This document shows, one piece after another, positions 1 to 32,858 of a stretch of DNA of 64,000 nucleotides; position 1 is the first letter of the stretch, and each line of letters starts with the position of its first letter. The translations under genes and the position numbers were made by a program. Origin of the DNA: an uncultured Verrucomicrobia subdivision 3 bacterium (GTDB taxonomy: Bacteria; Verrucomicrobiota; Verrucomicrobiia; Limisphaerales; UBA11358); the NCBI GenBank assembly GCA_903917705.1, contig CAIXBQ010000093.1, positions 12,268 to 76,267 on the forward strand, given 5' to 3'. The notes beneath the pieces are model-generated. The model was not told the DNA's origin, ran no database searches, and saw only the letters and a program-made list of their open reading frames with translations.

Positions 1-1469
1 TGCATCTCCGGGGTTGAAACGAATTGCTCAACGCCGTCTACACCGAGGTGATAGCTGAAGTGGGTGTTGCGGAACTCGGTGCGGAATACCCGCTTCTGCT
101 GTTCCTTCACGCGCCGCCGGGATTCGAGCGCCAGCCGGATGATCTGTTCCAGCTCGGCGTCCGGGATGACCATGGCGGGATCGGGGAAGAGCAGCTTGAG
201 CAGCCCGCTGACGGTCTTGTTTACCGCCTCGATGTCGCGTCCGCTTAAAGCGCCGCCCCAGTTCACCCGGCCTTGCAGGGACGATATCCGGCTGCCGTTG
301 CGCAGCTTGTTCCAGCACTCGGCCAGAAAGTCACTGACCAGACCAAAGTGCTCGGTCAGGTGCTCGCGGGCGCTGACTTTCGGGAAATCCCAGCCCGGCA
401 CGAAACAGTGTAGACGATCCATGAAGGCGGTGTTTGAGCGCATATCCGGCGGCAGCGGACTGAGCAGGTGACCAATCCGCTGCTGCTGGTTCACGTCCAC
501 ATCGAAGTTGCCGACCATGACCATGCTGCCGAACGCCCGGATGCTTTCCTTGCCGCGCGAGAACTCGCCGGAGGCCATATAGCCCTGCATAATGGTCACC
601 CCATCCTTCTGATCGAAGGTGATTTTGGATATCTCATCAAAGCAGACAACGTCGTAGTGGCAGACCAGACCGCGCTGGCCATTGGCATTGTTTACAAACA
701 TCTTGGCCACGGTCGCCACGCCCGAAACGAGGTGCGAATACGGCGAGATTTGCTGGAACAGATGGCTTTTGCCGGTGCCGCGCGGCCCCAGCTCAACCAT
801 GTTATAGTTCGGCTCCACAAAGGGGATCATGCGCAGCAGCATCACCCACTTCGCCCGTTCCGTGAGCGCCGACGGCTCGAAGCCAATCGAGCGCAGGAGA
901 AAGTCAATCCACTCCGTCAGCGTAAACTTCTGGCGACCCTGTTCCAGCGTCTCCAGCACGTTCGGCTTGGAAAGCTGGATCGGGCGCAGGCTTTCAATGG
1001 CAAAGGGGCGTCCGTTCTTTTCCTCGGCAATGGCGGCGTCATAGGTCAGGGTGACTTCGGAGTAGAAGCCGTCGGTCAGCATCCGCTCGTTGTCATGTAC
1101 GAGCTTGTCCTCGATGCGGACATCCTTGAGGGCGAGGCTGGGCAGCTCGGCGATGAAGCAGTCGTTCTTGGCGTCCAGCCGGGCCTTCACGATGTCGATC
1201 AGCTTCACCGAACCCTTCTCGCGGGCACGCGCCTTGAACAGCTCCGCGTCGACGGTGCGCACCGTCCGGTCTTTGAGCTGGCGCTCGACGATTTGCAGCC
1301 CTTCCTCGATCTCCTTTTCGTCGATCGTGGCGCAATACCGCCCGAGCAGGAACTCGACGACGTACGTCGGCACCGGATACTGGCGGCTGTATTTTCGCAC
1401 CAAATCCTTGCGCACCAGATAGCCTTGAAAGGCCGATGCGCCCAGTTTGTCCAATCCATCTGTGTTCAT
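1..1469 (-). CDS. brxL: BREX system Lon-related AAA+ protein BrxL (partial, runs off the window; absent from the ORF track)
   Basis: Manual translation from ATG 1469: MNTDGLDKLGASAFQGYLVRKDLVRKYSRQYPVPTYVVEFLLGRYCAT...; Walker A ELGPRGTGKSH and VVCFDEI; directly follows pglZ. Confidence 0.92.
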   Translation of the reverse strand, partial: MNTDGLDKLGASAFQGYLVRKDLVRKYSRQYPVPTYVVEFLLGRYCATIDEKEIEEGLQIVERQLKDRTVRTVDAELFKARAREKGSVKLIDIVKARLDAKNDCFIAELPSLALKDVRIEDKLVHDNERMLTDGFYSEVTLTYDAAIAEEKNGRPFAIESLRPIQLSKPNVLETLEQGRQKFTLTEWIDFLLRSIGFEPSALTERAKWVMLLRMIPFVEPNYNMVELGPRGTGKSHLFQQISPYSHLVSGVATVAKMFVNNANGQRGLVCHYDVVCFDEISKITFDQKDGVTIMQGYMASGEFSRGKESIRAFGSMVMVGNFDVDVNQQQRIGHLLSPLPPDMRSNTAFMDRLHCFVPGWDFPKVSAREHLTEHFGLVSDFLAECWNKLRNGSRISSLQGRVNWGGALSGRDIEAVNKTVSGLLKLLFPDPAMVIPDAELEQIIRLALESRRRVKEQQKRVFRTEFRNTHFSYHLGVDGVEQFVSTPEM

Positions 1470-1470
1470 A

Positions 1471-3828
1471 TCATTGATCTCCTCCGACCATCGTCGGCTG
1501 TTTGCAAATAACCCGCCCGGCGGCATCGATCACCACGATGCTCGTCGCCGTGCCGATCAGGTTTTCGTCTTCCACCAGCAGTCCGGCTTTGCCTTCACCG
1601 TCAAAGGGCTTGGCCTGTGTGATGCTGGTCTTTGCATCGTTCGGCTTGGCTCGCAGATCGGCGGTTAATCCCGCCACCGGCGGCTCGATGACGAGGCGGC
1701 AGCGCTGGCCCAGCCACTGCACCGTCTCGATCTTGACCGTCACCGCCTTTCCGCCCCCGGCCTTGCGGAAGGTCAGGTCGGGCGTCACGCATTCCTGCGG
1801 ACTCAACCCGCCGTGGGCGTATTCGGTGCCGTTGGTGAAACAGTATACGCCGGGCGCGCAGGCCACCGCCTGCCGGGCGTCCCAGAACCAGCCTGCCGCC
1901 GGTACATCCGCCTGTGCGCCCTCCTTGATGACGGCGCAGCGGGACCAGCGGCATTCCACCAGATATTTTTTGAGCGGCAGCGACGGCAGTCCGCCGGGCG
2001 CCAGCAGCCAGCCGTGGTCGGTGACCACGCGCACCGAGCGCCAACCGGCTTCCAGCAGGTGAATGATCCGTTCCAACACATGGTCGATCTGCTCTTCAAT
2101 CTGTCCGGCCAGCCGGGCCTCTAGTTTGTGGCCCAAGGCATCGAATTCACCATGCTCCGTCCACGCTTTGGCGTCCTCGCCGGTGGGGGTGCCGGTTTCC
2201 AGCCCGTGCAGTATCTGATGTCCGGTGGCGGCGATGGCCGTCCGTAAACGATCCGCCGTCACGGGCTTTCCGCTCTCGGTGATGACCGGACAAAAGTCGG
2301 CCCCGGCGGCTTCACCGGCCACGCCGAGCGCGGCAGGGGTCACCGCAGGCTTGGCCGTGGGCGTCACCGACGGCAAGGCGGACAGGCGATAGCCTTCCGT
2401 GTACAACAGGTGCCGCTCGTGCGCCCGCGCCAATAACCGCTGGGCGACGTCAAACCGCAGACCGTCTACAAACATCAGGCACTCACCGGGTTCAGCGGTC
2501 ACCAGCCGGTCTTTTATTTCTGCTCGGCCCGGAAGGGGGTGCTTCTGCGCCGCCTTTTGAAAGTTGCGGGCCGAATCATCCAGCCAGCCCAGATAGACGC
2601 AGCGTATGGCTGCTTGGACGGCGGCGATGTCGTCATTGGTCTTAACACAGGCCAGCGCCCGCAGCACGGCGTCATCAGCCCGGTAGCCGGTTTTGGCATA
2701 GCTGGCCGCCACCGCATCCGGCGAGTCGCCTACCAAAGGCAGGGTCGTGTTTTCGGCCAGTGTAAACAAATGCTCCAATGCGAGGGCCATCGGGCTGTAG
2801 CCCATTTTGGCCCAGACCCACGAACGCCGCCCACCGTGTTCTTCGTTGAGCTTACGGATGCTTTTACGTCCTTCTTCTGGCGGTTGCTTGGGCAGCGTGA
2901 GCAGTGTCGCCCGCAGGTTCTTTTCATCCCTCTCGTTTTCATCCGGCCATGAATCCCGATCCGAGAACAGCTCTAGCACGCTCGGCTTGGCCCGCCGCAG
3001 GGCTGCCGGTATGCCCGGATAGAGCGACGGTGATTCCGTAAACCGGCGCCACGCCTCGGCCCACGCCGCTTTCCGCAAGCCGAGCCGCTCGGCTCCCACC
3101 AACTCGCCTTCGCTCACTGGATCAAAACGAAACTCCTCTTTGCAGCGCGAACAGAAAGCCTGCCAGTGCGCCGAATCCCAGCTTTCGCGCGCCTTGGGAT
3201 TGCTGATCCACGCCAGCAAATCGCGCACGGTGTCACCGACCATCAGCTTGTCAAAATCGTTCGACTCAAGTTTGTGGCCCCGCAGCGTTGAAATCGGCGT
3301 CGTGGCCAGCATGTCCAGCGCGCCCAGCAAGGCGATGTGTGTGGACTTATCGCGGCTGATATCCAGACCGAGGCCACCGTTGTCCGCCACCATGAACGCT
3401 TCCAGTGTCCAGTCCTTGCCGTTGACGTGCGTCCAGACCGTGCCGCGATATTGCAGCTCCACCAGCGGCTTCAGCTCGTCCGGGCACTCTTCCGGCGACC
3501 GCAGCAACTGGCGGCTCACCTTGGGCAGGTACAGAATTGGCACCGCTTTTTCCGGCAGCTTCAATTCCGGCATCGCGCCGTCTACAACGCACCGCAGCCA
3601 GATGGCAGGCCCAGTGCGCTGTTCCGGCTGGTAATCGCCCAGTGTCAGTAGTTCCGGCATCAGAGCGCGCAGGCGGTTTACGATCGGCTGCCATTCGCCC
3701 TCGGTGTCCGTCCAGAGAATGGCGGCGGGCGGCAGGCTGTCGCCGGAGTTGTAGCGACCCGCTGCGGCGAGGCTGTCTTTGACCGCCTCGATGAACGTCC
3801 CGCTCTTGATATGATGGTTGTTGGGCAT
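1471..3828 (-). CDS. pglZ: BREX PglZ alkaline-phosphatase-fold protein
   Basis: 785 aa; PglZ motifs FVDGLRFD, LSALPSVTPTAK, VTDHGWL, YAHGGLSPQE; lies between pglX and brxL. Confidence 0.93.
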   Translation of the reverse strand: MPNNHHIKSGTFIEAVKDSLAAAGRYNSGDSLPPAAILWTDTEGEWQPIVNRLRALMPELLTLGDYQPEQRTGPAIWLRCVVDGAMPELKLPEKAVPILYLPKVSRQLLRSPEECPDELKPLVELQYRGTVWTHVNGKDWTLEAFMVADNGGLGLDISRDKSTHIALLGALDMLATTPISTLRGHKLESNDFDKLMVGDTVRDLLAWISNPKARESWDSAHWQAFCSRCKEEFRFDPVSEGELVGAERLGLRKAAWAEAWRRFTESPSLYPGIPAALRRAKPSVLELFSDRDSWPDENERDEKNLRATLLTLPKQPPEEGRKSIRKLNEEHGGRRSWVWAKMGYSPMALALEHLFTLAENTTLPLVGDSPDAVAASYAKTGYRADDAVLRALACVKTNDDIAAVQAAIRCVYLGWLDDSARNFQKAAQKHPLPGRAEIKDRLVTAEPGECLMFVDGLRFDVAQRLLARAHERHLLYTEGYRLSALPSVTPTAKPAVTPAALGVAGEAAGADFCPVITESGKPVTADRLRTAIAATGHQILHGLETGTPTGEDAKAWTEHGEFDALGHKLEARLAGQIEEQIDHVLERIIHLLEAGWRSVRVVTDHGWLLAPGGLPSLPLKKYLVECRWSRCAVIKEGAQADVPAAGWFWDARQAVACAPGVYCFTNGTEYAHGGLSPQECVTPDLTFRKAGGGKAVTVKIETVQWLGQRCRLVIEPPVAGLTADLRAKPNDAKTSITQAKPFDGEGKAGLLVEDENLIGTATSIVVIDAAGRVICKQPTMVGGDQ

Positions 3829-6800
3829 CAGCTTTTCTCCGCCTTTTTCAAATGAACATCATTCACGCGGTCGCCGTAGGTGCTTCCGCTGTAGAACCAC
3901 GGATATTCCGCCTTGTCCCGCTTCGGCTCCTTGCCGCGATCCTTGTCCCACTTGATGTTCGGCTTGGTGCGCAGGATGCCCGCGCTCTTTTTACCGCCGG
4001 GGATGTCGTTGGCGAGGAACGGACGGATGTTCATCCGCACCCCATCGTTGATATCGGGATTCCAGCCGACGGCCTGCTGCGAGAGCGGCTTCCAGCGCAC
4101 GAAAATGTCGTATGGCGGCTCGCCGTCGTGGATGGCTTCTAGCGTCTCCTTGAGGGCCAATGCCGCTGCCAGACGCTCGTCCGCGCCTTCCTCGGGGTGC
4201 TTCGGATCGACGCCGTGTTTCTGCCGCGTGATCCAATCGCCGAGGTAGCTGTGCGTCAGGTTTTCCAGCGTCCGTCGGCCCTTGCCCTTTTCACCGGCCA
4301 GCTTGTGGTAATTGACCAGCGCGTGGAAGCCGTCGCGCTTGCGGCCATCCCAGACGTGCCAGATGAACGGGCGCTGATGGAACATGTCGCAGTGCTGCTC
4401 AAAGAAATCGTTCCGCAGCCATTCTTCCAAGTCCGCCGCATCCGAGCCGCTGGCGCGGATCAGCTCCTGCTCGGTCTGCGCTTTCCAGTCCTTGCCGTAG
4501 ACAGTGGCCAGCAGCTTGCGCAGGCGCTCAGCTGCCGGTTCTTCGCCGCGCACGGATGGAATACAGACGATGCCGTCGTCGTCAGCGAACTTCTCCAAGC
4601 CATCCTCCTTAAGCGCCGGACAATCGGGGAAGCTCGAACCGGTCTGGCGCGGCCACTGGTAGCCGAGCAAGCGCGCCACGGCGACGTGCAAGGGATGGTC
4701 TGAATCTTTGGGGTGACCGTTGAACAGCCACTGCGTCGGGTCGCTGGAATACGGCTTCGGCAAGCCGTTCGGATATTTCTTCGCCGCCACCTTCTGCCAG
4801 TGCTCAAGGTCGAAGGGGACTTTGACAACTGTTGCGCAAGTAACCCCAAGCTTTTGATCAACTTTGCGAATCTCTTGAACGAACGATGCGCTCGAGCAGA
4901 ACGCCCAAATCGCTGGAAAAATTTGCGAGTGCGTGGGAATCAGGACGTGAACATTACCATCGAAAGGCTCACCTGTATAAACCGTAGCGGGGAGCCTGCT
5001 CATAGGCGCGATACCAACGCCATAATGATTCCATGCTTTCATTCCTTGCAGCCGTCCACCGATGGAATCAACCTCCTCCTCAAATGTAGGAAAATCCATG
5101 AGTTGGTGTTTGCCAGCGACGAGAGCAGTGTCCTCGATTGATCCTTGTAGAAACTTCCATTTCGTTGGCGCAATCGGATTTTCCCAGAATAGACGGACAA
5201 AACGAGAGCGGTCTGCTGGCATCAATCCTTGGGTGGCAAAAGCATACTTTCCAAGCAAAGGAAGTTTTGAACCTTCAGTTAAGATAAATCTGTGATCAGG
5301 GTTGTTCAGTTGTTCATTTTGAAGAGTAATGTGTGTTTCGACGGACTGAATTGCTGACGCTTTCTCACTGGGCTTGGACGCGGAAGAAGCGTCCAGCCCG
5401 CAAATGCGGTTCTCCGGTGAAAGCATGCGTCTGCTTATACAAATGAGGGCAACATTTACAACCTCACCACTAATAGTCTCAAAAGCACCCGTTCCCAAAC
5501 GCGCAACACAATTCCAACTTGTAGTTCTCAACATTCGCTCCCGAAAATCTTCATATGCCCCTAGAAACAGCCAGCCTTGAGGTTCAACTAGAGCAACGGT
5601 GCAGTCTGGTGCGCAGAAATCTAAGCTGCGCTGTAAGAAAACAGTGGCTAAATCATGCCTTGCGTCATAAGCATACTTTTCGGAAAAGTCAGCTAATGCT
5701 TCTCCCTGATTCCTTCTCCCAAGGTAAGGCACGTTGGTGGCGACGAGCGTGAACTGGCCCGCAAGAATTTCCGCCGCTTTGACCAAGCCGCGCGCGGTCA
5801 CGGCCATTTCGTGTGCGTTGTCGTCGTTGGCTTCCTGCGCCAGCGCTCTTTCCAGCAGCGGCTGGAGTTTGCCGAAATCTGCCTCAAGCAGTTCGTCATG
5901 AGCGACTGAAGGATTGATGAGGCTGCCTAGGATGGGAGCGTTTTTGAAAAGCCGGTAAAGGCGCGCCATACCATTCTTGGCATAGCCGTCATCACCGGCA
6001 ATTTTAACCCAGTCCGCCTCGCGGGTGTTGGGCGCAAGCCCAGAGCAGGCAAGATTCATCGCAGGCAGCTGGCAGTAGCCCACGCGCCGCCATGCGGCCA
6101 GCGCCAAGTTGAACGCGCCGATCTGGGTGCAGCGCGGGTCAATCTCCAGACCGAACAGGTTGTCCCGGATGACCGCCGTCACCGCCGCCGCTTCGGCCAG
6201 TTTCTCTTCGGCCATGCGCAGCGCTACCATGCGCTCAAACATCGCTACCTCGAAGTGTCCGCTGCCCATGCACGGATCGAGGCATTTGATTTCCTTGGCC
6301 GTCTTCGGCCAGCCGTCGAAAGTTCCGGCGGCGGGCGTCCATTTGCCGTCCTTGCCCTTGATGAAGCGCAGGTACTTCCACGCGCAGCCCGGCAGCGCAA
6401 CGGCCCGGCGGAGTTCATCTTCGCTCTTCGCGCTTTCGGCGAGCTTGGGATTGGCCGCCAGAACCTTACCGGCGTGCCATGCGCCGAGCGTGTTGTCCAA
6501 GAGGAAGTCCACCATGTAGTCTTCCGTAAATAACTGCGTGACCGACGGCAATTCGTCCGCGCCGATCTTAACTTCCGACTCGTTCACTTCCTTTTTACGT
6601 TCTGTTTGCCAGAACTGGTAGCACCAGCCGAGGCTGTCGCTGGCCGTAAACGTCTCCTTGGCCAGCGCGTCGAGCATCGCTTCCAGCTTAAGCTGATCCT
6701 CGCGCGCCAAGGGCACTTGCAGCACCGGATCATCGGCCCGGAAGATTTCCGGCAGCATCGTCTGCGCGTAGCGCCCGGCGAGCGCCCAGAGATTGGTCTT

Positions 6801-7169
6801 CGCGTCCTTCGCCAGCTCCTTGACTTCTTCCAAACTGACGGCCACGCCCATGTCCGGCTCGATCAGCAAATGATTCTCCGCCAAGAAGCGCGCGAACAAC
6901 ATCCGGTGCCAGTGCTCGTAGCCGCACTCCTGAGCGATATGGGCGACGGAAAGCTGGCCTCTGGTCTCTTGGGTGTCGCCAAGCTGCCGCGCCCGCGCCC
7001 GGAGCTTGTTGCGCAGCGTACGCTGTTCCGGCGACATGTGCCCATAAGGTTCATGGTGCGCCACAGCCAGCGCCTTGAGCGCGTCCGCTGCCGCCCGTTC
7101 TGCTAAATTGCGGGCGGCGATACATGTCCGTTCCAGCTTGGTGCGTAGGTCAGTGGCGAGGGTGCTCAT
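3828..7169 (-). CDS. pglX: BREX adenine DNA methyltransferase PglX/BrxX
   Basis: ~1113 aa; QLFTEDYMV, SAM-binding LDPCMGSGHF, catalytic TNVPY (NPPY variant). ATG 7169 overlaps the NYN stop (ATGA); alternative ATG at 7175. Confidence 0.92.
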   Translation of the reverse strand: MSTLATDLRTKLERTCIAARNLAERAAADALKALAVAHHEPYGHMSPEQRTLRNKLRARARQLGDTQETRGQLSVAHIAQECGYEHWHRMLFARFLAENHLLIEPDMGVAVSLEEVKELAKDAKTNLWALAGRYAQTMLPEIFRADDPVLQVPLAREDQLKLEAMLDALAKETFTASDSLGWCYQFWQTERKKEVNESEVKIGADELPSVTQLFTEDYMVDFLLDNTLGAWHAGKVLAANPKLAESAKSEDELRRAVALPGCAWKYLRFIKGKDGKWTPAAGTFDGWPKTAKEIKCLDPCMGSGHFEVAMFERMVALRMAEEKLAEAAAVTAVIRDNLFGLEIDPRCTQIGAFNLALAAWRRVGYCQLPAMNLACSGLAPNTREADWVKIAGDDGYAKNGMARLYRLFKNAPILGSLINPSVAHDELLEADFGKLQPLLERALAQEANDDNAHEMAVTARGLVKAAEILAGQFTLVATNVPYLGRRNQGEALADFSEKYAYDARHDLATVFLQRSLDFCAPDCTVALVEPQGWLFLGAYEDFRERMLRTTSWNCVARLGTGAFETISGEVVNVALICISRRMLSPENRICGLDASSASKPSEKASAIQSVETHITLQNEQLNNPDHRFILTEGSKLPLLGKYAFATQGLMPADRSRFVRLFWENPIAPTKWKFLQGSIEDTALVAGKHQLMDFPTFEEEVDSIGGRLQGMKAWNHYGVGIAPMSRLPATVYTGEPFDGNVHVLIPTHSQIFPAIWAFCSSASFVQEIRKVDQKLGVTCATVVKVPFDLEHWQKVAAKKYPNGLPKPYSSDPTQWLFNGHPKDSDHPLHVAVARLLGYQWPRQTGSSFPDCPALKEDGLEKFADDDGIVCIPSVRGEEPAAERLRKLLATVYGKDWKAQTEQELIRASGSDAADLEEWLRNDFFEQHCDMFHQRPFIWHVWDGRKRDGFHALVNYHKLAGEKGKGRRTLENLTHSYLGDWITRQKHGVDPKHPEEGADERLAAALALKETLEAIHDGEPPYDIFVRWKPLSQQAVGWNPDINDGVRMNIRPFLANDIPGGKKSAGILRTKPNIKWDKDRGKEPKRDKAEYPWFYSGSTYGDRVNDVHLKKAEKS

Positions 7170-7786
7170 ATCCATTTAGCCGGTTTTTGCAGCTGAATTC
7201 CGTCGGGCTTAACGACTGGATCAGGCAGTTGATTTTGACGCAGCGCGGCTTCGCTAATGCGAAACCATCCATTAGCCTCTTTTTTCAGCCGTTCTGAAAC
7301 TCGGTTTGGCGGGAAGGCAATAACGACGCGCTTCTTCGGAAACAGACTCCGCACTTTGAGCACTGGCCCAGTCAGGTCACTGTCCGCTGAAATCATCAAC
7401 GCGGTATCGAACCTGTCCTCGTGCGCGTCTACCAGCAATTCCATGGCGATGTTTACGTCCGTCATTTTTTCTTCCTGCTTCTGCCACTTTGCCCCGCAGG
7501 CGCGGCATTGAACGGGTTTAGAAAGGTAATGACCGAAAAAGACGGAGGTTTGCGGCAAAGTGCCGATGGCCTCCAAATAGGTATTCTGACGCTTGTCTTG
7601 ATCCGGGTCAGAGGGTGTGGAGGAAACGCGGCTGGTAAAATATTTGACGTGCTCCAACTGCTGCGATGGCTTCAGCAAGGCGATGGAAAACTTTTGCAAA
7701 TCGAGCCAATAGTAACGACGCCAGCCATTTGACCGGATGCCAAAGTATAGATTGAATCCGTCAATGTAGGTGATGACGCGTTCCAT
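7166..7786 (-). CDS. NYN-domain (LabA/DUF88, PIN-fold) putative ribonuclease
   Basis: 206 aa; YIDGFNLY, EEKMTDVNIA and ISADSDL acidic active-site motifs; CRAC insertion. Confidence 0.9.
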   Translation of the reverse strand: MERVITYIDGFNLYFGIRSNGWRRYYWLDLQKFSIALLKPSQQLEHVKYFTSRVSSTPSDPDQDKRQNTYLEAIGTLPQTSVFFGHYLSKPVQCRACGAKWQKQEEKMTDVNIAMELLVDAHEDRFDTALMISADSDLTGPVLKVRSLFPKKRVVIAFPPNRVSERLKKEANGWFRISEAALRQNQLPDPVVKPDGIQLQKPAKWI

Positions 7787-7834
7787 AATGTTTTAGCAGG
7801 TTGAAAAAGGGGCGATTTTGTGCTTGATTGAATT

Positions 7835-7921
7835 GGGACATGGTTGTAGAACCTTGCCCATCACCCCGCCGGTGATAGTATCACCGGCTCGACGCCCGGC
7901 GAAAGCCGGGTGTCTCTTTTT
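7835..7921 (+). ncRNA. Putative small structured RNA divergent from the NYN gene and antisense to the BREX operon
   Basis: Three consecutive hairpins (7834-7860, 7868-7888, 7891-7914) followed by TCTTTTT; upstream TTGAAA-17 bp-TTGATT promoter-like sequence (7801-7829). Confidence 0.5.
7891..7921 (+). terminator. Intrinsic terminator-like hairpin on the + strand
   Basis: GACGCCCGGC-GAAA-GCCGGGTGTC then TCTTTTT. The G-U pair, GNRA loop and U-tract all work only on the + strand. Confidence 0.7.
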
Positions 7922-7941
7922 CAGGATGTCACTTCGGGCGT

Positions 7942-10900
7942 TCATCCCACCACCACCGGCCCTTTCTTTATTTTTTCGAGCAGGTCGGCCTTGGTTGTCT
8001 CCAGCCAAGCCGTCACATCGTCCGGCGACTTGAGCGTGCTGCTCGACAGGCTGACCCGCTGGGTCTTGGGTTCGAGCAAGCGCGCTGCCGCGAGTGCCGC
8101 CTGCCGGAACCGCTCCGGCAAGGCGTCCGCCGCCGTCGCCCAGACGGCCAGCGATTGAGCCGAGAGTTCCGCTATGAGTCCGGCGTCATCGCCAATGGTC
8201 AGTTCCTTTAGTGGCGAGAGGCGCGCATCCTTCAACAGTTGCTCGCACTGCGCCGCTGTGAGCTTCTTCCAGTTGGCATTGGCATCCAGTGCCGTCATTT
8301 CACGCTCGTAAACCTCGGTGGCCGCCGAGTGCGCTTTCTTGAGCGCTGCCCGCAGGAGTTTGACCACCTTGCTATGGATGGACGGAACCGGGTCGCCGTC
8401 TTCGAGCAACCTGCGCTCGTTGCGCACGGCGTCGGCTTCCTGCTGAAGCTCCACCGCTTCCGGTAGCCCGGCAGCGTAGCCTAAAAGCTTTTCCAGCGTG
8501 TCCCACGAGGGCTTACGCTTCTTTGCCAAAGCGGCCAGCGCCTGCCATTTCTCCAGATGCTTTTTCAGCGCGTCGTGCTCGCTCAAAATCGCCGCCAGCA
8601 TTTCATTTCCAGCCAGCGCGCGAATGGTTTCCAGCACATTGGTGTCCGGGCAGGCGGGCAGCGGCGCGTCGCCCCCGGCTTTGGCGGCAAGGTCGTCCAT
8701 CGCCGCCAGATATTTTTCCGCCGCTGCGACTTCTTCATCAGCCTTGCAGGGAACCTGCGCGTCTTGGAACAGGCGGCGCAGCTTGATCCGGCTTTTTACG
8801 TCGATGGCCACCGTTTCGGAGCGGAAGTCCGTGACGGGTACCTTCGACTGATCCAGTTGGCCCGCCAAAAGCACCGTGCCTTTATGGACGGCGCGGATGT
8901 GACCGCTCGTGTGCAAGGTGATCAGCACGGCGTCTACAGCGTCACGCGGCCAGCCATAGGGCGCGTTTTCAAACTGGTCGCGGATGTCCTTGCCCTTCTT
9001 GCCGGAGCCGATGGCCGCCAGCACCGCCACGCTAACCGGGTGTTTTTCCGGGTTGTCCTTGTGATCCACCGCCTGTAGCGCGTTGGCATCTTTGCCCTTG
9101 GCTCGGTTAATGACGCTGCCCCAGCGGTTGTCGTCGGCATCCCGGAACTGCGGAAACAGCCGGTCGAGCGAGTCTTCGGCGGCGGACTTGACCTTCTCGA
9201 TCAGATCGAGTCCCAGAACCTCGGTGCCGCCGCCTTTGAACACCTTTGCCGTGCCGATCAGCTCGCGGATGATGCGGTCGCGGTTGCTCTCCGCCGTTGC
9301 CCGGCGGGTTTCCATCGCGGAGCGAGCGTCGTTGCCTTCAATGGTCGTCGGCGCACCCTTGAACTCCAAGGTCTGCTTGGCCGCCTCGAACTCAACGATC
9401 GCCTTTTTCAAGTCATCGGCGCTGGCTTTGGGAATGTGTACGAAGACGGTCGCGCCGTCGGTTCCGGCCTTTTGCGCGTCGGTCAAGACGACCTTCTCCG
9501 CATCGCCCCAGCCATCCCGAATCCAGACCGGCACCTCGGTGCCACTGGCCGCCGGAGCGTCGCTGCCGTAGTGGATTTTCAGGTCACGGGCCGTCTTGCT
9601 CAGGCCATGCGTCATGCGCACGCTGTTGAGGGTCTTGAGGCATTCCGCGTTGAGCAGCGCCGCGCGCCGGTTGTTTACCCCGGCCAAATCACCGTTCATG
9701 GCGGCAAGCTTCTTGCGGAATTCGTTTTCCCACTCGCCGCTCTCGCGCGTCTGGAGGCTGTATTCATCGTCGATCTTGATGAGCTTCGACTCGGCCACCA
9801 GTTTTTCCAGTATCCGGGGAATCTCCCGGCGCAGGCGCGGGCCGTCCTTCTCAAGGTTTTCCACCAGTAAGTCCGCCAGCATTTCCGGCGTGGCGCGAAC
9901 GCCGATGTCAGCAACCTTTTCGCGCGGCAGCTTGCGGATCAGAAAGATCAACCCGCACAGGCGGCTGGCCAGATTGCCGTCCTCCGTCCCGTCGCGCAGG
10001 TTGCGGATGGTTTCGTCCATCTCCCGGGGCAGGAACTGCGAGCGCAGCAGGTCGGCTTGGAGCTGGTCAAAGACGCAGTCGGCGGCCAGCACCGTGCCGA
10101 GCGGCTTGTCGGCCAGCCCGCTTACGGCGTCGTGAACGATGCGCAGCTGGCTGCGGAGCTGGGCCGTCGTGCCCTGAACGTCAATGGCCCGCAAGACCTT
10201 CTCCCAAAACCGACGGCGAACCGGCAAGAGCGGGTAGTCATCCACCCGGATGCGCTTATCATCGTCCCGGGCGCCAATCTTGGTGGCGGACAGGTGCCGG
10301 TCGATTTCCCCAGCGTTGCTGTCGAGCATGTCCTCGATGGCTTTTCTCTTATCGGCCTTTTTAGCCAGTACCACCCGGCGGGTCACCGTCTCCACATCCG
10401 CATCGGAAAGCTCGACGCTGATCTTGAAACGGTCGCGCAGGCGTTGCAGGAGCGAATCCTGACCGGCCAGAGCGGTTTGACCGGCGCCAATGAGCAGCAC
10501 CCGGCTATCAAGCTGTTTACAGATGGCTTCCGCGACCATTTGAACGTCCAGAGATCGCTGGGTGTTGTCCCCGATATAGAGCTGGATTTCGTCGAGCACG
10601 ATCACCGTGCAGGGCAGCTTGCCGTTCTCTTCCAAGACTTCGCGGATCAATCGGATGAACTCTTCGTCGGTGACGGTTTCGCGCCGGGGAAATTGCGCCC
10701 GCAGCGCCTCCTTGGCTTTCCGTTCATCGGAGGCAAATTCAGGGTCGGCGGCCAGCAGGGCTTTGGCCACGACCGGGCTGACATACAGGTCGTTCAGCTC
10801 GCGGTAGAAGTTTTTACCGGCGGCCTCGACCGTCTTCTTGACCTTGGCGAACATCCCGTTCTTTTGGAGCCAGAGACAGAACTGTGCCTGCGGCAGCGAC

Positions 10901-11391
10901 TCCGGCAGTTCTTTGGATTTGAAAAGGATGCTCAGGACGGCGATGCGCACGTTCAAGCCGCCGCCCGCCGGTAGCGCGCCCACCGCTGCGTGCAGGCCGC
11001 CAAACCGCTGGCCCAGCGTGTCGAGTTCTTTGAGCAGCTCCTTCACCTCGGCGGGCAGACGCGCCAAGCCGCGCGCCGTCTCGCCGGTCTTGGGAAACTT
11101 GGTGTCCACCCAGAGGTGGCGCAGCATCTTTTCCAGATGGGATTTGCCGCTGCCGTAGAAGCCGCTGATCCATGCGGCGAGCTGCGTGGCCGAGTTGATG
11201 CCGCTGATGTAGGACTCCAGAATCCGCACGATGCCGTCCTTGTACTGCCCCTCGCAGACGAAGTGGGAAAGCTCGTAGCGCAGCGTTTCCAGCTCCTGCT
11301 CGGTGGCCGCGTCCTTGACGGCGGCCACGCCGTCATTCAGCAGTTTTGAAGTCGTCGGGTCACGTTGAAACAGTTCCTTGTTTTTAATCAT
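7942..11391 (-). CDS. brxC: BREX P-loop ATPase BrxC
   Basis: 1149 aa; Walker A WISGFYGSGKSH, Walker B VIVLDEIQ, DYPLLP, PYGWPRDA; coiled-coil C-terminus. Confidence 0.93.
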   Translation of the reverse strand: MIKNKELFQRDPTTSKLLNDGVAAVKDAATEQELETLRYELSHFVCEGQYKDGIVRILESYISGINSATQLAAWISGFYGSGKSHLEKMLRHLWVDTKFPKTGETARGLARLPAEVKELLKELDTLGQRFGGLHAAVGALPAGGGLNVRIAVLSILFKSKELPESLPQAQFCLWLQKNGMFAKVKKTVEAAGKNFYRELNDLYVSPVVAKALLAADPEFASDERKAKEALRAQFPRRETVTDEEFIRLIREVLEENGKLPCTVIVLDEIQLYIGDNTQRSLDVQMVAEAICKQLDSRVLLIGAGQTALAGQDSLLQRLRDRFKISVELSDADVETVTRRVVLAKKADKRKAIEDMLDSNAGEIDRHLSATKIGARDDDKRIRVDDYPLLPVRRRFWEKVLRAIDVQGTTAQLRSQLRIVHDAVSGLADKPLGTVLAADCVFDQLQADLLRSQFLPREMDETIRNLRDGTEDGNLASRLCGLIFLIRKLPREKVADIGVRATPEMLADLLVENLEKDGPRLRREIPRILEKLVAESKLIKIDDEYSLQTRESGEWENEFRKKLAAMNGDLAGVNNRRAALLNAECLKTLNSVRMTHGLSKTARDLKIHYGSDAPAASGTEVPVWIRDGWGDAEKVVLTDAQKAGTDGATVFVHIPKASADDLKKAIVEFEAAKQTLEFKGAPTTIEGNDARSAMETRRATAESNRDRIIRELIGTAKVFKGGGTEVLGLDLIEKVKSAAEDSLDRLFPQFRDADDNRWGSVINRAKGKDANALQAVDHKDNPEKHPVSVAVLAAIGSGKKGKDIRDQFENAPYGWPRDAVDAVLITLHTSGHIRAVHKGTVLLAGQLDQSKVPVTDFRSETVAIDVKSRIKLRRLFQDAQVPCKADEEVAAAEKYLAAMDDLAAKAGGDAPLPACPDTNVLETIRALAGNEMLAAILSEHDALKKHLEKWQALAALAKKRKPSWDTLEKLLGYAAGLPEAVELQQEADAVRNERRLLEDGDPVPSIHSKVVKLLRAALKKAHSAATEVYEREMTALDANANWKKLTAAQCEQLLKDARLSPLKELTIGDDAGLIAELSAQSLAVWATAADALPERFRQAALAAARLLEPKTQRVSLSSSTLKSPDDVTAWLETTKADLLEKIKKGPVVVG

Positions 11392-11948
11392 AGTTCGCCT
11401 CCGCTATGCAATGTGATGGGTACCGCCAGATAGTTCCAGCCGTCACGGGCATCCAAAAGCCGGTAGTTCTGGTTTTCGTATTCGCCCGGAAAGAACAGCA
11501 CCAGCCGCCCCCGGATGTCGTTTTCAACTTCCTTGAGCAGCATCGACACGCGGGCGAAGCCGTACAGGCTGGCCACCCCGCAGGCGGCGACCACGGTGTT
11601 GTCGTCCGCCTTGGCGTTGGTCAGCGCCTCGCGCAACTGCCCCGCCGCGTGGTGCAGAAAATCTGTCTCGAGCTTCATCGTCAAGTCGAACGGGTTCTGG
11701 AAGTACTCTTCGCGGTAATCAGTGGCCGCCATCCAGCGCGCAAAGACCGACGTGAAGTCAAAGGGCAGCCAGCCGTGGCCGGATTCCTTGGTGGCCAGCT
11801 CGAAGAGTTCCAGCCGCGCCCGCAGGCGGCGCTCGTCCGTCTTGGGATATACGACGAAAATGGCTTTTTGGGCACCGGCCAGATTGCGCTGCCAAGGCGC
11901 TGCAATATGCGACTTGTAGCCCGCCACCAGTTCTTCAATGTGCGCCAT
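11388..11948 (-). CDS. brxB: BREX protein BrxB (DUF1788)
   Basis: 186 aa; GVASLYGF...LVLFFPGEY...YRLLDARDGWNYLA; ATGA overlap with brxC. Confidence 0.88.
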   Translation of the reverse strand: MAHIEELVAGYKSHIAAPWQRNLAGAQKAIFVVYPKTDERRLRARLELFELATKESGHGWLPFDFTSVFARWMAATDYREEYFQNPFDLTMKLETDFLHHAAGQLREALTNAKADDNTVVAACGVASLYGFARVSMLLKEVENDIRGRLVLFFPGEYENQNYRLLDARDGWNYLAVPITLHSGGEL

Positions 11949-12801
11949 GCGTTAGCCTTTTTTCCTTTTCGGTTAAAATCCCATCGAACGAAACCACCAG
12001 CATGCCGCCGCCGGACTTGATGTCCAGCAGCCCCAGCCGCTTGGCGTCCATCGCCATGAAGGAGAGATCGTTCGCATCCCGGTCGAGCAGCCGCGCGAAC
12101 AGCGTCTCAAACAGACCCGGCCCGCGCACGCCCAGCAGGTATCCCATCAGGAGCGCGAAAGCGACCGCGCCCGGCGTCGGCGTGACGGTTAGGCGTCGTT
12201 TACGGCTGCGCCCGTCCAGATGCCCGGATTGCGTCCACGACGATGCCGCATTGCGCACCACCTTGTCCAGCGTCGCGTCGTTCAGGCGCCCGGCCACGGC
12301 GGCCCGGATGGCGTCCGTGAACTTCTGCCGCGCGATCTCATCGCCGCTGGCCAGCGCCAGCACAGGGGGCGCCGTGGCCCGTAACAGCGGATCGCGCGCC
12401 AGTGACAGCAGCAGCGCGATCAGTCCATGCGCTTTTTCGTCGGCATACCAGAAGTGGCGGGCGACGCGGAACAGCGTCACCTTGTCGTCCAGCGTATACA
12501 GCTCGGTCAGCCGCTGGAGGGTGATCTTGCGGGTGGATTGGGTGTGCTTGCCGAGACAGTTTTCGGCGACGATGGCGGCCACGTAGTCAGCTCTGGTGGC
12601 CTGCGGCCTGCAAACGCGCAGGGCGCCCGACAACTCGTCCAGCATGATGGTGCGGCTGGTGTGCGTGCCAGTATCTCCGAAACGGAAGCCTAACTGCTCG
12701 GCCTGCGTTTTGGCGACGTCGGCCACTTGGCCAAGCCCAATTTGGATCGGGTCACGGTACATCGTGTGGTTTGACGGCTGGTTTGCCGTCAAAGTGTCCA
12801 T
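11935..12801 (-). CDS. brxA: BREX protein BrxA-like DNA-binding protein (start may be ATG 12,762)
   Basis: First gene of the operon and overlaps the brxB start; helical protein with ENCLGKxT and SSWTQSGHL. The name rests mostly on position. Confidence 0.72.
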   Translation of the reverse strand: MDTLTANQPSNHTMYRDPIQIGLGQVADVAKTQAEQLGFRFGDTGTHTSRTIMLDELSGALRVCRPQATRADYVAAIVAENCLGKHTQSTRKITLQRLTELYTLDDKVTLFRVARHFWYADEKAHGLIALLLSLARDPLLRATAPPVLALASGDEIARQKFTDAIRAAVAGRLNDATLDKVVRNAASSWTQSGHLDGRSRKRRLTVTPTPGAVAFALLMGYLLGVRGPGLFETLFARLLDRDANDLSFMAMDAKRLGLLDIKSGGGMLVVSFDGILTEKEKRLTHGAH

Positions 12802-13040: not shown

Positions 13041-14927
13041 TCACTGGCTAGTGCCGGGAGGGTCTTTCTGGAAGGTCTCCAGCGCGATCAGGAAGGGTTC
13101 TTCCAAATCCATGTGCAGGTCATGCTCCGGGGCAATCCGTTTAAAACCGGCGAACATCAGGCACATGAGATGCAGGCCGGTGAACTTTTCCCCCGGCAGC
13201 GACTTGAGCGCGTACTTGGCATCAGGTGAGGCGTAGTCCAGCCCGGACTGGCCGACGATGCCGATCTCGAAGGCGACGTCGCGAATCTTCTCCACGGGCA
13301 GCCGGTTGAAGCGCTTCAGGGCGTCAAGGCAGTAGAACACCGCTGGCATCTGCTTTTTGCGCAGCAGGTCGGGATTGGTTGTGCCTTCCGTCGGCTGCGT
13401 GCCGGTGATTTCATGACTGCCGGGATCGGCGCACCACTCAAACCAGCCGCGCAGGCCGAGCAGGTCGGCGAACTCTTCCACCAGTGTATACTCGTCGCCG
13501 GGTCCAAGCTGGGCGGAGCGGGACTGCCAGAGCCGGAACAGCCGCTGAGAAAGTGAGAAGGCTTCTTCACGCTGATAGCTCGCGGCGTAGGCCGTGGCCC
13601 CCCGATAGAGCTGGTCAACGAACAGCGCGTATGCGCCGTTCAACGCCAGACTGGCCCGGAGGATCAGCGGCGGGGTCAGCTGGCGCACCTCGGGATTGGT
13701 GTTGGACTGGAGGGCGTCCGCCACGCTGGTGCGCAGGGAAACAAACTGGGCGGCGGCCAAGGCTGGCATCCGTTCGCGCAGGCGCGTCTCAATGACCATG
13801 TCGAGCGGGCAGTTGAACAGAAAGTTGGCCGTGCCGTGAATCCACTGCCGGGTCATTGTGCTCAGGGTATTAGCGGGCAGGCCGCGCCGTTCGAGCTTGA
13901 GCAACTCGTTCTGTATACGCTTTGCGGCAAAGGCGTCGGTGCTGCCGGTGGTGCTGAAAAAGCGGTTTTTCCCCGCCGACCGGGCCTCCGCCTCCAGTTG
14001 CAGATGTGTCAGCTCGTGCGCCAGCAGGTGGCACCGAAGAGGGTCGGGCGTCCCCGTACGAACCTTGACGACGTGGTGGTTGCGGCCATGTTTCCACGCC
14101 ATCTGGATGACCGCCAAAGTGGTGTCGGGAAAATCGTCCTCGGTCACGCGCACCGGGAAACCGGATGCCTGCTCCATCTCAGCGCGGAAGTTCTCGACGA
14201 CTTTGAAGGCGTCCGGGTGCTGCCGGGGTGCCAATTCGGCCTGCACCGCGCCGTAAAGCTGCCGGGCGTTGTCGTATACCACCTTTGACCGGGCGTCAAC
14301 CGGGCGGGAATTGGCAAACATCCGGTCAAGCGACTGACCGGCACGTTCATGCTGGCTTGCGCGATAATGAGTCAGTGCAAGGCCGTGGTGCGGGTTGGGC
14401 AGGTCGGGCTTGGCGGCAATCGCCTGCTCGAACAACTTCAAGGCCGGTTCCGTCTGGCCGCGCTGGGCCGTGATGGTCGCCAGCCCGGTCAAGGCCCAAG
14501 GATCAGCCGGGTCGATGTCCAGAGCGCGCCGGAAGAACTTCTCCGCCGTGGGCCAGTCCGTGGGTTGCCCTGCGTACAGGTTCCCCAGCACGACCCAGCC
14601 CCAAGCGTCCGCCGGGTTCAGCCGCAGCAGTTCGATGAGATGGTTTTTGGCTCCGTCAACGTCGCCCGTCTCCGCGCTCGCCATCGCCAGATCACGCCGG
14701 GCCTTGTGCAGCAGGGGATTCAGCTCCAGCACCCGCTTCCAGAGCGAGATGGCCTTGGGATAATCGCCCTCGGACGCCCGCTTGGCCGCCCGGTCGGCCA
14801 GCTTTTCCGCCTCCATCAGGGCGGCGGCGTTGCCGTCCGCAAAAGTAATGGTGACGGAATCGTCAGCGACCACGACTTGCAGGGGCTGGCGCAGGAACGC
14901 AAACTGCCGCCGCGCCATCGCCTCCAC
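13041..14927 (-). CDS. TPR-repeat protein with a C-terminal HEXXH zincin-like domain; probably missing its native start (frame stays open to ~15,013)
   Basis: Several TPR helix pairs (KAISLWKRVLELNP, AEKFFRRALDIDP, ALKLFEQAIAAKP) and LLAHELTHL. Confidence 0.8.
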   Translation of the reverse strand: MEAMARRQFAFLRQPLQVVVADDSVTITFADGNAAALMEAEKLADRAAKRASEGDYPKAISLWKRVLELNPLLHKARRDLAMASAETGDVDGAKNHLIELLRLNPADAWGWVVLGNLYAGQPTDWPTAEKFFRRALDIDPADPWALTGLATITAQRGQTEPALKLFEQAIAAKPDLPNPHHGLALTHYRASQHERAGQSLDRMFANSRPVDARSKVVYDNARQLYGAVQAELAPRQHPDAFKVVENFRAEMEQASGFPVRVTEDDFPDTTLAVIQMAWKHGRNHHVVKVRTGTPDPLRCHLLAHELTHLQLEAEARSAGKNRFFSTTGSTDAFAAKRIQNELLKLERRGLPANTLSTMTRQWIHGTANFLFNCPLDMVIETRLRERMPALAAAQFVSLRTSVADALQSNTNPEVRQLTPPLILRASLALNGAYALFVDQLYRGATAYAASYQREEAFSLSQRLFRLWQSRSAQLGPGDEYTLVEEFADLLGLRGWFEWCADPGSHEITGTQPTEGTTNPDLLRKKQMPAVFYCLDALKRFNRLPVEKIRDVAFEIGIVGQSGLDYASPDAKYALKSLPGEKFTGLHLMCLMFAGFKRIAPEHDLHMDLEEPFLIALETFQKDPPGTSQ

Positions 14928-30889: not shown

Positions 30890-31010
30890 TTGTTGTCGCC
30901 TGCAACCAATGCCACATCGTCGACGTTCCGTCAAACGGCGGCCGGCCAGCAAAAACAATTTCTTCAGGTTTGGAGTTGCGCTAGCCTGAATGCGTTCAAA
31001 CCACAGCCAA

Positions 31011-32858
31011 ATGAAAATACTGTATATAATTTGCTCGAGCGCGCTTTTTGTCGGTGCCGATGTTCGGGCGGAAGCGGTCATCGCGGATGTATTCGCGCGG
31101 CAGGCGACCAGCTTGAACGGCAAATGGAACTACATCGTGGACCCGTATGACACGGGTTATTTTGACTATCGCCGGAAGCCGTTTGATGAAGATGGAAAAG
31201 TGACCGGCGGGTATGCGCTCGACCGGCAAGCCAGGAACAAGGGCGATTTGATTGAATACAACTTCAACACCAGCCCCACGCTGAATGTGCCAGGGGACTG
31301 GAATTCGCAGAGCGACAAGCTGTTCTACTATGAGGGTTCCGTCTGGTATCGTCGCAAATTTGACGCGCCAAAATCCGCACCTGAGCACCGGCAGTTTATC
31401 TATTTTGGCGCGGCCAATTACGAGGCTGACGTATATCTCAACGGCAAAAAGCTCGGCCAACACATCGGCGGCTTTACGCCCTTCGCCTACGAAATCACCA
31501 AGTTGGCCAAGGACAAAGGCAATTCGCTCGTCCTTCGTGTGAATAATAACCGCCACGCTGACGCCGTGCCAACGGTGAACACGGACTGGTGGAATTATGG
31601 CGGCATCACACGCGATGTGCTGCTCGTTGAAACGCCTGCGTCATTCATCGCCAATTTTCGCGCCCGGCTTAAGCCGGGCACCTCTAACATCATCGAAGCA
31701 ACGGTGCAACTCGACGGTGCAAACAGGGGGCAGGCGGTGAAAATTGATTTCCCGTCGCTGAACCTTGCTGCCGAGACGGCCAGCGACCAGGATGGCATCG
31801 CGCGGTTTGAGCTTTCCAGGCCGGGTCTTGCCCTCTGGTCGCCGGAAAATCCGGCATTGAACGAGGTTGTGATTTCCAGCGGCGATGATTCGCTGAAAGA
31901 TCGCGTCGGCTTCCGTTCTGTGGCTACGAGCGGCCAGGACATCTTGTTGAACGGTAAAAAAGTCTTCCTGCGTGGTATCTGCATTCACGAGGAAGTGGCC
32001 ACGGAAGGTCGCCGGGCTTGGTCGGAAACGGACGCACGAATGCTGCTCTCGCAGGCGAAGGAGTTGGGTTGCAATTTTGTCCGACTCGCCCATTACCCGC
32101 ACAACGAGCACATGGCGCGCGTCGCCGACGAGATGGGCATTCTGTGCTGGGAGGAGATTCCGGTTTACTGGACAATCCAGTGGACGAACCCGGTCACACT
32201 GGCAAACGCCAAGAAACAGCTTTCCGATTTGATCGGACGCGACCAGAATCGCGCCAGCGTCATTGCCTGGTCGGTAGCCAACGAAACGCCGGTGAGCGAG
32301 GCGCGGACGAGGTTTTTGAAGTCGCTGGTGGACGAGGCGCGCGGACTTGACGGCACCCGGCTGGTTTCGGCGGCGATGGAAGTTCGTTCCGGCACGATGG
32401 AGAATCGACCAGGAACAAAGCCGGAGAACCACAAGGTGGTGGACGATCCGTTCGGGGAGTTCACCGACCTGTGCAGCTTCAACCAATACATCGGGTGGTA
32501 TGATGGTTTGCTGGAGAAGATTGACCAGACCACTTGGAGCATCAAATACAAAAAGCCGGTTTTCATCAGCGAATTCGGCGCGGATGCCAAGCAAGGGATG
32601 CATGCGGATGCCCAGACGCGCTTCAGCGAGGAATATCAAGCCGAGCTTTACCGCCGGACGCTGCCGATGCTGGACCAGATTCCTGGTTTCAGCGGTTGTA
32701 CGCCGTGGATTCTGTTCGATTTCCGCTCTCCGCGCCGCGTGTTGCCGGGGATTCAAGATGGCTGGAATATCAAAGGTGTTATCGGCCACAACGGCGAAAA
32801 GAAAAGGGCGTTCGACGTGCTGAAAAACTTTTATGCAACGAAAGCGGCGGCAAAATAA
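31011..32858 (+). CDS. Glycoside hydrolase family 2 (beta-glucuronidase-like)
   Basis: [34 protein letters not shown] (acid/base), ISEFGA (nucleophile). Confidence 0.92.

Follow-up and report, generated by a model that had tools for sequence, protein, structure and literature searches.

Within the BREX operon of an uncultured Verrucomicrobia subdivision 3 bacterium, the gene for a NYN-domain nuclease of the HEC-09 family is accompanied by a structured small-RNA element on the opposite strand, and the same element recurs beside homologues of this nuclease in many phyla. The stretch analysed, referred to here as the window, is 64,000 nt long (contig CAIXBQ010000093.1 of assembly GCA_903917705.1), and coordinates and strands (+ or -) are those of the window. 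The nuclease and the RNA element lie between brxC and pglX. A covariance model of the element, R1, matches 77 of the 80 genomic NYN loci compared, and its helices are maintained by changes on both sides of their base pairs. An initial annotation of this DNA had proposed a small-RNA gene opposite NYN and partnered with it, and that proposal is borne out by the covarying element, which mostly has a promoter and a terminator of its own. As to function, we lean towards the view that the RNA is an inhibitor of NYN, acting by a logic like that of type III toxin-antitoxin systems, albeit from outside that family.

A covarying RNA structure linked to NYN

We fetched 80 genomic NYN loci from many phyla, whose products are 47–60% identical to the window NYN. 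A 34-nt core of the gap upstream of the window gene recurs upstream of NYN in unrelated contexts, and alignment of 30 copies with MAFFT, blind to structure, gave two helices by RNAalifold, with compensatory changes in 10 of the 17 pairs. Covariance model R1 finds 90 matches in the 77 loci; the initial annotation had expected a covarying structure upstream of NYN homologues if the RNA were real, and this is what R1 describes. Of the three loci without a match, one is cut by a contig end (L084), one has a weak match in the right place (L058, 17.7 bits with filters off), and one has none (L074).

Across 89 distinct sequences, 97.3% of 1509 cells are paired, and changes on both sides are seen in 15 of 17 pairs and in 267 cells. 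None of 500 shuffles reaches that pairing and slid controls pair at 61% or less, although the alignment was fitted to the model and leans towards the structure, and sequence relatedness inflates the shuffle statistics. Wobble pairs are strongly asymmetric, with 124 G·U against 8 A·C (72 against 6 when the basal pair is left out), and because G·U far exceeds A·C the RNA strand is the window + strand, opposite NYN. The 5′ tail is single-stranded and conserved, as is the linker between the two hairpins, P2 and P1, and the apical sequence of P2, GAUAG(C/U)AUC, is nearly invariant across the family; tail, P2 apex and linker stay conserved in copies from 37% to 74% G+C.

These observations bear on the idea that there is no specific partnership at all, and that the element is a promoter-terminator insulator or a DNA-level site (operator, recombination) travelling with the cassette. 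Such an idea would suit the near-perfect DNA palindrome formed by P2 and the mobility of the cassette between defence operons, but covariation preserves pairing and not sequence, the wobbles distinguish the two strands, and an insulator has no need of a tail, apex and linker conserved over so wide a range of G+C. We consider it very improbable, and the least probable of the explanations weighed here.

The linkage to NYN was also seen in a motif scan of viral and metagenome contig collections, which used a 22-letter motif from P2 and the linker and accepted exact matches only. Among the metagenome matches listed, 48 of 80 motif loci have NYN within 170 nt. More distant NYN relatives (about 40% identity or less) lack the RNA, and in 40 viral-contig loci with distant NYN genes (46% identity or less) the RNA was found at E ≤0.01 in only two of the three closest. 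We note that plasmids of 3.4 kb in Escherichia coli (NZ_CP091696.1, 3461 bp) and, similarly, in Serratia carry a distant NYN gene (36% identity) beside the gene of a helix-turn-helix protein and that of a VbhA-family antitoxin; no R1 match lies beside the NYN of these plasmids, nor did E. coli genomes give any match to a proteobacterial copy of the RNA. One metagenome contig (L132) encodes two NYN paralogues, at 4002–4598 and 7208–7822 of that contig, which are 35% and 58% identical to the window NYN.

No Rfam 15 family reaches its gathering threshold in the window element (the best, nhaA-II, scores 21.9 bits against 70.4), and none was found in eight further loci. We found no description of a NYN-linked small RNA in the literature, the HEC-09 preprint cited below being the only related match.

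The RNA element in the window

The three hairpins and U-tract described in the initial annotation were all found, and their positions are given in Table 1 together with those of the surrounding genes. The + strand of 7833–7922 folds with -50.2 kcal/mol (z-score -7.15) and none of 200 shuffles is as stable; both strands of the 155-nt gap between brxC and NYN fold far better than shuffles. The last hairpin has the form of an intrinsic terminator, with G-C pairs at 8 of 10 positions ahead of the tail TCTTTTT. It was also argued initially that this is not a terminator for brxC, and we agree: the only terminator site in the scan is on the + strand, the - strand has no U-tract after the hairpin, the G·U pair 7894·7911 is specific to the + strand, and the element accompanies NYN. 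A second fold, in which CACCC pairs with GGGTG, was rejected, since the pairing is not conserved: 57.1% of cells are paired, and slid controls reach up to 68%.

The element is single-copy in its genome, both by blastn of the 155-nt gap and by the covariance model. A repeat or miniature inverted-repeat transposable element was considered and set aside, the gap being without another copy in the genome by either search. A search of 150 relatives with strict filters gave no copy either.

Table 1. Positions of the RNA element, the nuclease gene and the BREX genes in the window.
Feature	Position	Strand	Evidence or remarks
Small-RNA core (5′ tail, hairpin P2, linker, terminator hairpin P1, U-tract)	7853–7924	+	Covariance model R1, 68.6 bits, E 2.7e-16
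Promoter candidate A (that of the initial annotation): TTGAAA (7801–7806), 17 nt, TTGATT (7824–7829)	7801–7829	+	Hexamers and spacing kept in L157 and L191
Promoter candidate B: TTGATT, 17 nt, TAGAAC	7824–7852	+	Best match (8/12) at family-homologous offset
5′ hairpin (first hairpin of the initial annotation), specific to window subclade	7834–7860	+	9 pairs, 3 with changes on both sides (window, L157, L191)
Hairpin P2, 9 bp, 3-nt loop	7868–7888	+	All 8 modelled pairs with changes on both sides; 96.2% of cells paired (89 distinct sequences)
Hairpin P1, terminator stem, 10 bp, GAAA loop, one G·U (7894·7911)	7891–7914	+	Terminator scan; 7 of 9 modelled pairs with changes on both sides; 98.4% of cells paired
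U-tract TCTTTTT of intrinsic terminator	7915–7921	+	Terminator scan; columns conserved in family
NYN-domain nuclease, HEC-09, 206 aa	7166–7786	-	PADLOC PDLC04163; PF01936
brxA	11935–12801	-	PADLOC BrxA
brxB	11388–11948	-	Pfam BrxB
brxC	7942–11391	-	PADLOC BrxC, NCBIfam BREX_BrxC; upstream host-operon gene
pglX, methyltransferase	3828–7175	-	PADLOC PglX from residue 3; Pfam Eco57I, N6_Mtase
pglZ	1471–3828	-	PADLOC PglZ; NCBIfam BREX-1 PglZ type B
brxL	3–1526	-	Pfam BrxL

Two positions may serve as the promoter of the window RNA. The TTGAAA-17-TTGATT noted initially (candidate A) is present, with TG two bases upstream of TTGATT, and an RNA of ~86 nt starting near 7836 would be expected from it. 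Its hexamers are kept in the two closest relatives, but its standing as a promoter is less secure, as the second position of the -10 hexamer is not A and a consensus scan returned 0 promoter-like sites. Candidate B lies where most family members have TTGACA-17-TATAAT, and would give an RNA of ~63 nt from near 7859.

The two closest relatives, the metagenomic loci L157 and L191, encode NYN proteins 80% and 71% identical to that of the window and have nearly identical P2 and P1 hairpins. They retain TTGAAA or TTGCAA, 17 nt, and TTG(A/G)TT, with a different spacer sequence, and they retain the first hairpin, in which 3 of the 9 pairs have changed on both sides (among three sequences only, the window included). 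Both the hexamers and the first hairpin of the initial annotation thus recur in these relatives, the latter with compensatory changes. Because the hexamers are kept despite the change of spacer, and the first hairpin with them, the comparison favours a three-hairpin RNA of ~86 nt for the window subclade; candidate B is an alternative candidate start for the window RNA, three sequences being few for such a comparison. The 5′ hairpin is specific to the subclade: in most family members the -10 hexamer stands ~12 nt ahead of the tail, which leaves no space for such a hairpin.

A separate gene with variable position and orientation

Across the family the element has the signals of a transcription unit. 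The best sigma-70 promoter match scores at least 10/12 upstream of 47 of the 90 copies but in only 8 of 1800 random windows; TTGACA keeps a constant offset, the -10 hexamer stands ~12 nt ahead of the conserved 5′ tail, and the 3′ end is formed by a G+C-rich hairpin with a conserved U-tract after it.

The arrangement relative to NYN is not fixed. Among the 80 genome loci the RNA is upstream and divergent only in 65, upstream and co-directional in 6, downstream and convergent only in 4, and both upstream and downstream in 2, the remaining 3 being without a match; among the metagenome matches listed, the 48 NYN-linked loci comprise 35 divergent and 13 co-directional arrangements. Two to four RNA copies are present in 10 of the 77 loci. 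In one locus (L083) a single consensus promoter reads the RNA and then NYN, and in another (L030, 6655–7040 of that record) four tandem units converge on NYN, each with a TTGACA-17-TAATAT-like promoter, an RNA and a terminator. Since position, orientation and copy number all vary relative to NYN, the element is therefore best described as a putative separate gene for a trans-acting small RNA, and this freedom speaks against its being a leader, an operator or an obligate cis-antisense RNA.

The last of these merits comment, because the window RNA is fully complementary to a read-through brxC-NYN-pglX transcript, and in the window as in the 65 loci with only an upstream divergent copy the RNA gene is antisense to transcripts entering NYN. 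A cis-antisense regulator of type I character could pair with this transcript and so govern the expression of NYN or pglX, whether by cleavage of the duplex or by interference with transcription. The SymE/SymR system, a type I system in which a cis-antisense RNA is coupled to an RNase-like toxin, is comparable in that its small RNA, too, lies opposite the 5′ part of a gene for a nuclease. But the NYN RNA is co-directional in 6 of the 80 genome loci and in 13 of the 48 NYN-linked metagenome loci among the matches listed, lies only downstream in four genome loci and on both sides in two, and has orphan copies without NYN; moreover, antisense pairing requires no loop or linker sequence conserved across phyla. 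As orientation and position vary and orphans exist, the mechanism conserved in the family cannot be pairing with the toxin mRNA, and we think cis-antisense control improbable, though a possible second among the alternatives.

The NYN nuclease

The window NYN is a full-length HEC-09 protein (PDLC04163, E 1.4e-90, 300.4 bits, residues 1–205 on profile positions 1–202 of 203) with a NYN domain (Pfam PF01936, E 9.5e-8, 33.1 bits against a gathering cut-off of 24.2), and in sitting between brxC and pglX it is, like other HEC-09 proteins, embedded in a multi-gene defence system. About 3,900 relatives are present in the protein collection. It had been read as a 206-residue NYN nuclease with intact acidic motifs, and comparison with 30 NYN homologues agrees, as D9, N12, D110, N112, S136 and D137 are invariant and D135 is nearly so. 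The AlphaFold (AF2) model has a mean predicted local distance difference test score (pLDDT) of 93.3, and the best PDB folds found by Foldseek are the NYN proteins 2qip (E 9e-11) and MARF1. Judging by these residues and the predicted fold, the window NYN looks catalytically intact.

The fold and the acidic active-site residues are shared with LabA/DUF88-type NYN proteins and the NYN domain of MARF1 (PDB 2qip, 5yaa, 6fdl). The window protein differs from these in an insertion at residues ~80–106, which is a feature of its family, bears invariant H86, C94 and C97, and is predicted to form beta-strands. This insertion could be a zinc-binding or RNA-binding element, a zinc-ribbon role being a guess. 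To our knowledge, no small RNA is associated with the LabA/DUF88-type or MARF1 relatives.

HEC-09, for Hma-embedded candidate 09, was presented by Payne et al. (bioRxiv 10.1101/2024.01.29.577857) as a single protein without a defence phenotype and, in the parts of the preprint available to us, with no mention of an RNA; the terms 'non-coding', 'RNA antitoxin' and 'type III toxin' have 0 occurrences in its main text. A weak eIF2B/5-like similarity of HEC-09 is described in that preprint. The window protein belongs to the same family, has the same MARF1-like NYN fold, and is likewise embedded just upstream of a methyltransferase gene in a multi-gene defence system. It differs in lying inside BREX and not Hma, and the family as analysed here has a conserved small-RNA gene.

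Phage copies and Thermus phage phiLo

The motif scan also found copies of the RNA without the nuclease. NYN is nearby in none of the 26 motif loci on viral contigs, 22 of which have at least 800 nt on both sides, and the full R1 model matches 24 of the 26, although IMG/VR contigs may include misassigned DNA. Among the metagenome matches listed, 32 of 80 loci lack NYN, of which 14 have room on both sides and 28 match the model. Ten neighbour proteins from viral contigs were scanned, of which six gave PHROG matches and five were of phage type, for example baseplate, virion protein, terminase and HNH. There is no recurrent neighbour family of the orphan copies, whose neighbours fall into 65 singletons and 11 small clusters, these being mostly pairs from near-identical contigs.

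A single named phage, Thermus phage phiLo (MH673673.1), was matched by blastn with a 70-nt query, a search that detects near-identical copies only. The phiLo copy scores 65.5 bits with R1 and lies behind a perfect TTGACA-17-TATAAT. An open frame runs divergently from this copy, beginning with 22 codons of the NYN N-terminus and continuing into unrelated sequence and a stop. A 189-bp block of phiLo is 96.8% identical to an HmaA-RNA-NYN locus on the Thermus oshimai plasmid pTHEOS01 and ends exactly at the RNA 3′ end; of the six differences, one converts the host TTTAAT to TATAAT. As this near-identical block holds the RNA gene plus a NYN stub, it appears that the phage recently took the RNA gene and lost the nuclease.

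The phiLo copy lies in a 460-nt intergenic region (30937–31397 of the record) directly upstream of the Ro60 gene phiLo_26, which encodes TROVE and vWA domains. Two Y-RNA-like RNAs, Yrl1 and Yrl2, have been proposed in the region upstream of this gene (NAR 2025, PMC12135203); their selection used a CGAA motif and RNAfold, and binding was shown in vitro. Yrl1 and Yrl2 thus share the intergenic region of the NYN-type RNA gene and the NYN stub, but the NYN-linked element has no match to the Rfam Y RNA, and the phiLo copy derives from a NYN locus. Ro60 is adjacent in phiLo only, and no Ro60 is listed among NYN neighbours in the PADLOC scans, though PADLOC may have no Ro60 model.

These copies raise the question of whether the RNA is part of a broader phage or mobile-element RNA family that has an independent function, for instance as a Y-RNA-like ligand or as a module for processing or termination, with NYN reading the RNA as a target or infection marker and the host copy being autoregulatory. 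That 58 of the 106 motif loci among the matches listed lack NYN, including all 26 viral contigs, would be expected if this were so, as would the location of phage copies at gene ends in sense orientation and of the phiLo copy directly upstream of Ro60, in the region for which Y-RNA-like RNAs have been proposed. The orphans have no recurrent neighbour family, however, the RNA matches nothing in Rfam, Y RNA included, and the phiLo copy came recently from a NYN locus as a captured 189-bp block, NYN stub included. A wider phage function is a possible third alternative, and we rate it as slightly less probable than cis-antisense control.

A proposed mechanism and its relation to toxin-antitoxin systems

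Returning to inhibition of NYN by the RNA, a two-gene cassette, made up of the HEC-09 NYN and a divergent + strand small RNA of ~63–86 nt, would have inserted at the brxC-pglX junction. The RNA would be transcribed from its own sigma-70-type promoter and fold into P2 and the terminator hairpin P1, with the extra 5′ hairpin in the window subclade. It would act in trans on the NYN protein and silence the nuclease for as long as host transcription runs. Upon shutoff of host transcription by a phage the RNA would no longer be replenished, NYN would become active, and the freed nuclease would degrade RNA and abort the infection; phages could escape by bringing their own copy of the RNA gene. We infer that NYN binds the RNA and is inhibited by it, that it is toxic when free, and that loss of host transcription is the trigger.

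Inhibition is favoured for several reasons. The RNA has a near-consensus promoter and NYN has neither a conserved promoter nor a partner protein; the copy number of the RNA is amplified and that of NYN is not; a minority of loci show the type III order of RNA, terminator and toxin; and phages keep the RNA alone, as expected of an antidote. The last point recalls phage TE, which reportedly captured ToxI. The initial annotation had cast an ~87-nt RNA as an antitoxin whose nuclease is released when a phage shuts off transcription or inhibits PglX, and of this the inhibitory role fits the phage orphans and the phiLo capture, but no tie to PglX was found.

The same data could be explained if the RNA were a positive partner of NYN (a cofactor, scaffold or targeting RNA), required by the nuclease for folding, assembly or the finding of its substrate, in which case the pair would be a ribonucleoprotein effector and not a toxin-antitoxin system. 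The linkage between RNA and NYN would be equally tight, the conserved single-stranded 5′ tail and invariant P2 apex would suit such a role, and the absence of HEC-09 defence in E. coli would fit a heterologous RNA that is improperly made. But the single-stranded tail is conserved and not variable, and hence is not guide-like, and phages that keep the RNA without the nuclease, above all phiLo with its intact consensus promoter, RNA and NYN stub, are hard to explain. We regard a positive partner as unlikely, albeit first in order of likelihood among the possible alternatives.

Several further points weigh against the RNA being an antitoxin of NYN. None of the results discriminates inhibition from activation, and we infer transcription of the putative RNA solely from promoter and terminator signals. 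Both promoter candidates of the window are weak, at 8/12, and neither passes the consensus scan. In most loci a single copy stands divergent from NYN, which sets them apart from the known type III loci. Viral copies mostly lack a promoter of their own (1 of 23 scores 10 or more) and act the part of terminators at gene ends, in sense orientation, and these might serve another purpose; the phiLo RNA shares its intergenic region with the Yrl1 and Yrl2 proposed for Ro60. Finally, HEC-09 cloned in E. coli, with ~150 bp of upstream DNA where possible, did not protect against the coliphages tested, and the available part of the preprint yielded no mention of HEC-09 toxicity (Payne et al., 10.1101/2024.01.29.577857).

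The nearest parallels to the proposed logic are the type III systems ToxIN, CptIN, TenpIN and AbiQ, in which an RNase is restrained by an adjacent small structured RNA; by analogy, NYN may be restrained in the same manner. A minority of NYN loci come closer still, with RNA, terminator and toxin in order on one strand and two to four repeated units. In type III systems the antitoxin takes the form of a processed array whose short repeats measure roughly 36 nt or more. The NYN-linked RNA differs in being ~63–86 nt long with two or three hairpins; in the window, as in the 65 of 80 loci that are upstream-divergent only, it also differs in having a promoter of its own and lying on the strand opposite the nuclease gene. 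The toxin differs too, being NYN/PIN-like and not ToxN-like, and there is no ToxN-type match in Pfam or PADLOC. Membership of the type III family, with which the initial annotation had compared the pair, is not upheld: the toxin has a different fold, and the window RNA is a single copy on the opposite strand and not a same-strand tandem repeat.

A mobile cassette in the BREX operon

The host operon is a type I BREX system, with brxA, brxB, brxC, pglX, pglZ and brxL all in a single - strand operon (PADLOC, Pfam, NCBIfam). The gap between brxC and the NYN reading frame (7787–7941, 155 nt) had been singled out as the only real spacer of the operon, and the reading-frame coordinates agree, as every other junction in brxA-brxB-brxC and NYN-pglX-pglZ-brxL abuts or overlaps. 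The start of pglX overlaps the NYN stop. An ATGA overlap, as originally described, holds if pglX starts at its second ATG (7169), and fails with the first ATG (7175), when the overlap is 10 nt; the second is favoured because the PADLOC PglX model aligns from residue 3. A 628-residue TPR-repeat protein is encoded directly upstream of brxA on the same strand (13041–14927).

The RNA-NYN cassette begins ~20 nt past the brxC stop. In two BREX relatives (L279 and L280) brxC directly adjoins pglX without an insert, and in three others (L278, L281 and L282) the junction holds different inserts of ~0.6 to >1.5 kb; the brxC-pglX junction looks like an insertion hotspot. BREX is found at only 1 of the 80 NYN genome loci (L010), where NYN and pglX are separated by two open reading frames, of 280 and 794 aa (6625–9899 of that record), the former without a PADLOC match.

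The 80%-identical NYN of L157 lies in an Hma system and not in BREX, in the order HmaA, RNA/NYN, HmaB, HmaC. HmaA accounts for 12 of 55 upstream neighbours of NYN and HmaB for 10 of 56 downstream ones, and the remaining neighbours are assorted defence and other genes. No protein partner is conserved among the neighbours of the NYN loci, which leaves the RNA as the only constant partner of this NYN clade. Given that L157 is in Hma, that brxC abuts pglX in two BREX relatives and that others have different inserts, the RNA-NYN pair is therefore a mobile cassette, whose landing site in different systems is just upstream of the methyltransferase gene. The initial annotation had placed the pair as a back-up to BREX, released upon inhibition of PglX, and this does not stand up to the occurrence of the same cassette in Hma and many other contexts; a functional tie of RNA and NYN to BREX or PglX is unsupported.

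Implications

We hold the balance to be even on the broader proposal that the HEC-09 NYN and its RNA represent a new and widespread class of abortive-infection systems with a protein toxin and an RNA antitoxin, both parts being unrelated to ToxIN, which rides in BREX, Hma and other restriction-like operons and is defeated by phage capture of the RNA, as in phiLo. If the mechanism holds, this would be a new family, and the very few RNA-antitoxin systems known would gain a further nuclease fold and a further class of RNA. HEC-09, until now an orphan candidate without a phenotype, would become one half of a protein-RNA module whose mechanism can be put to the test. In phiLo, the RNA region that precedes the Ro60 gene has an origin other than that assumed, and Thermus with the module and phiLo with the RNA only are a natural, culturable pair for testing RNA mimicry as a counter-defence. 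More generally, catalogues of defence islands that consider genes only overlook conserved non-coding partners.

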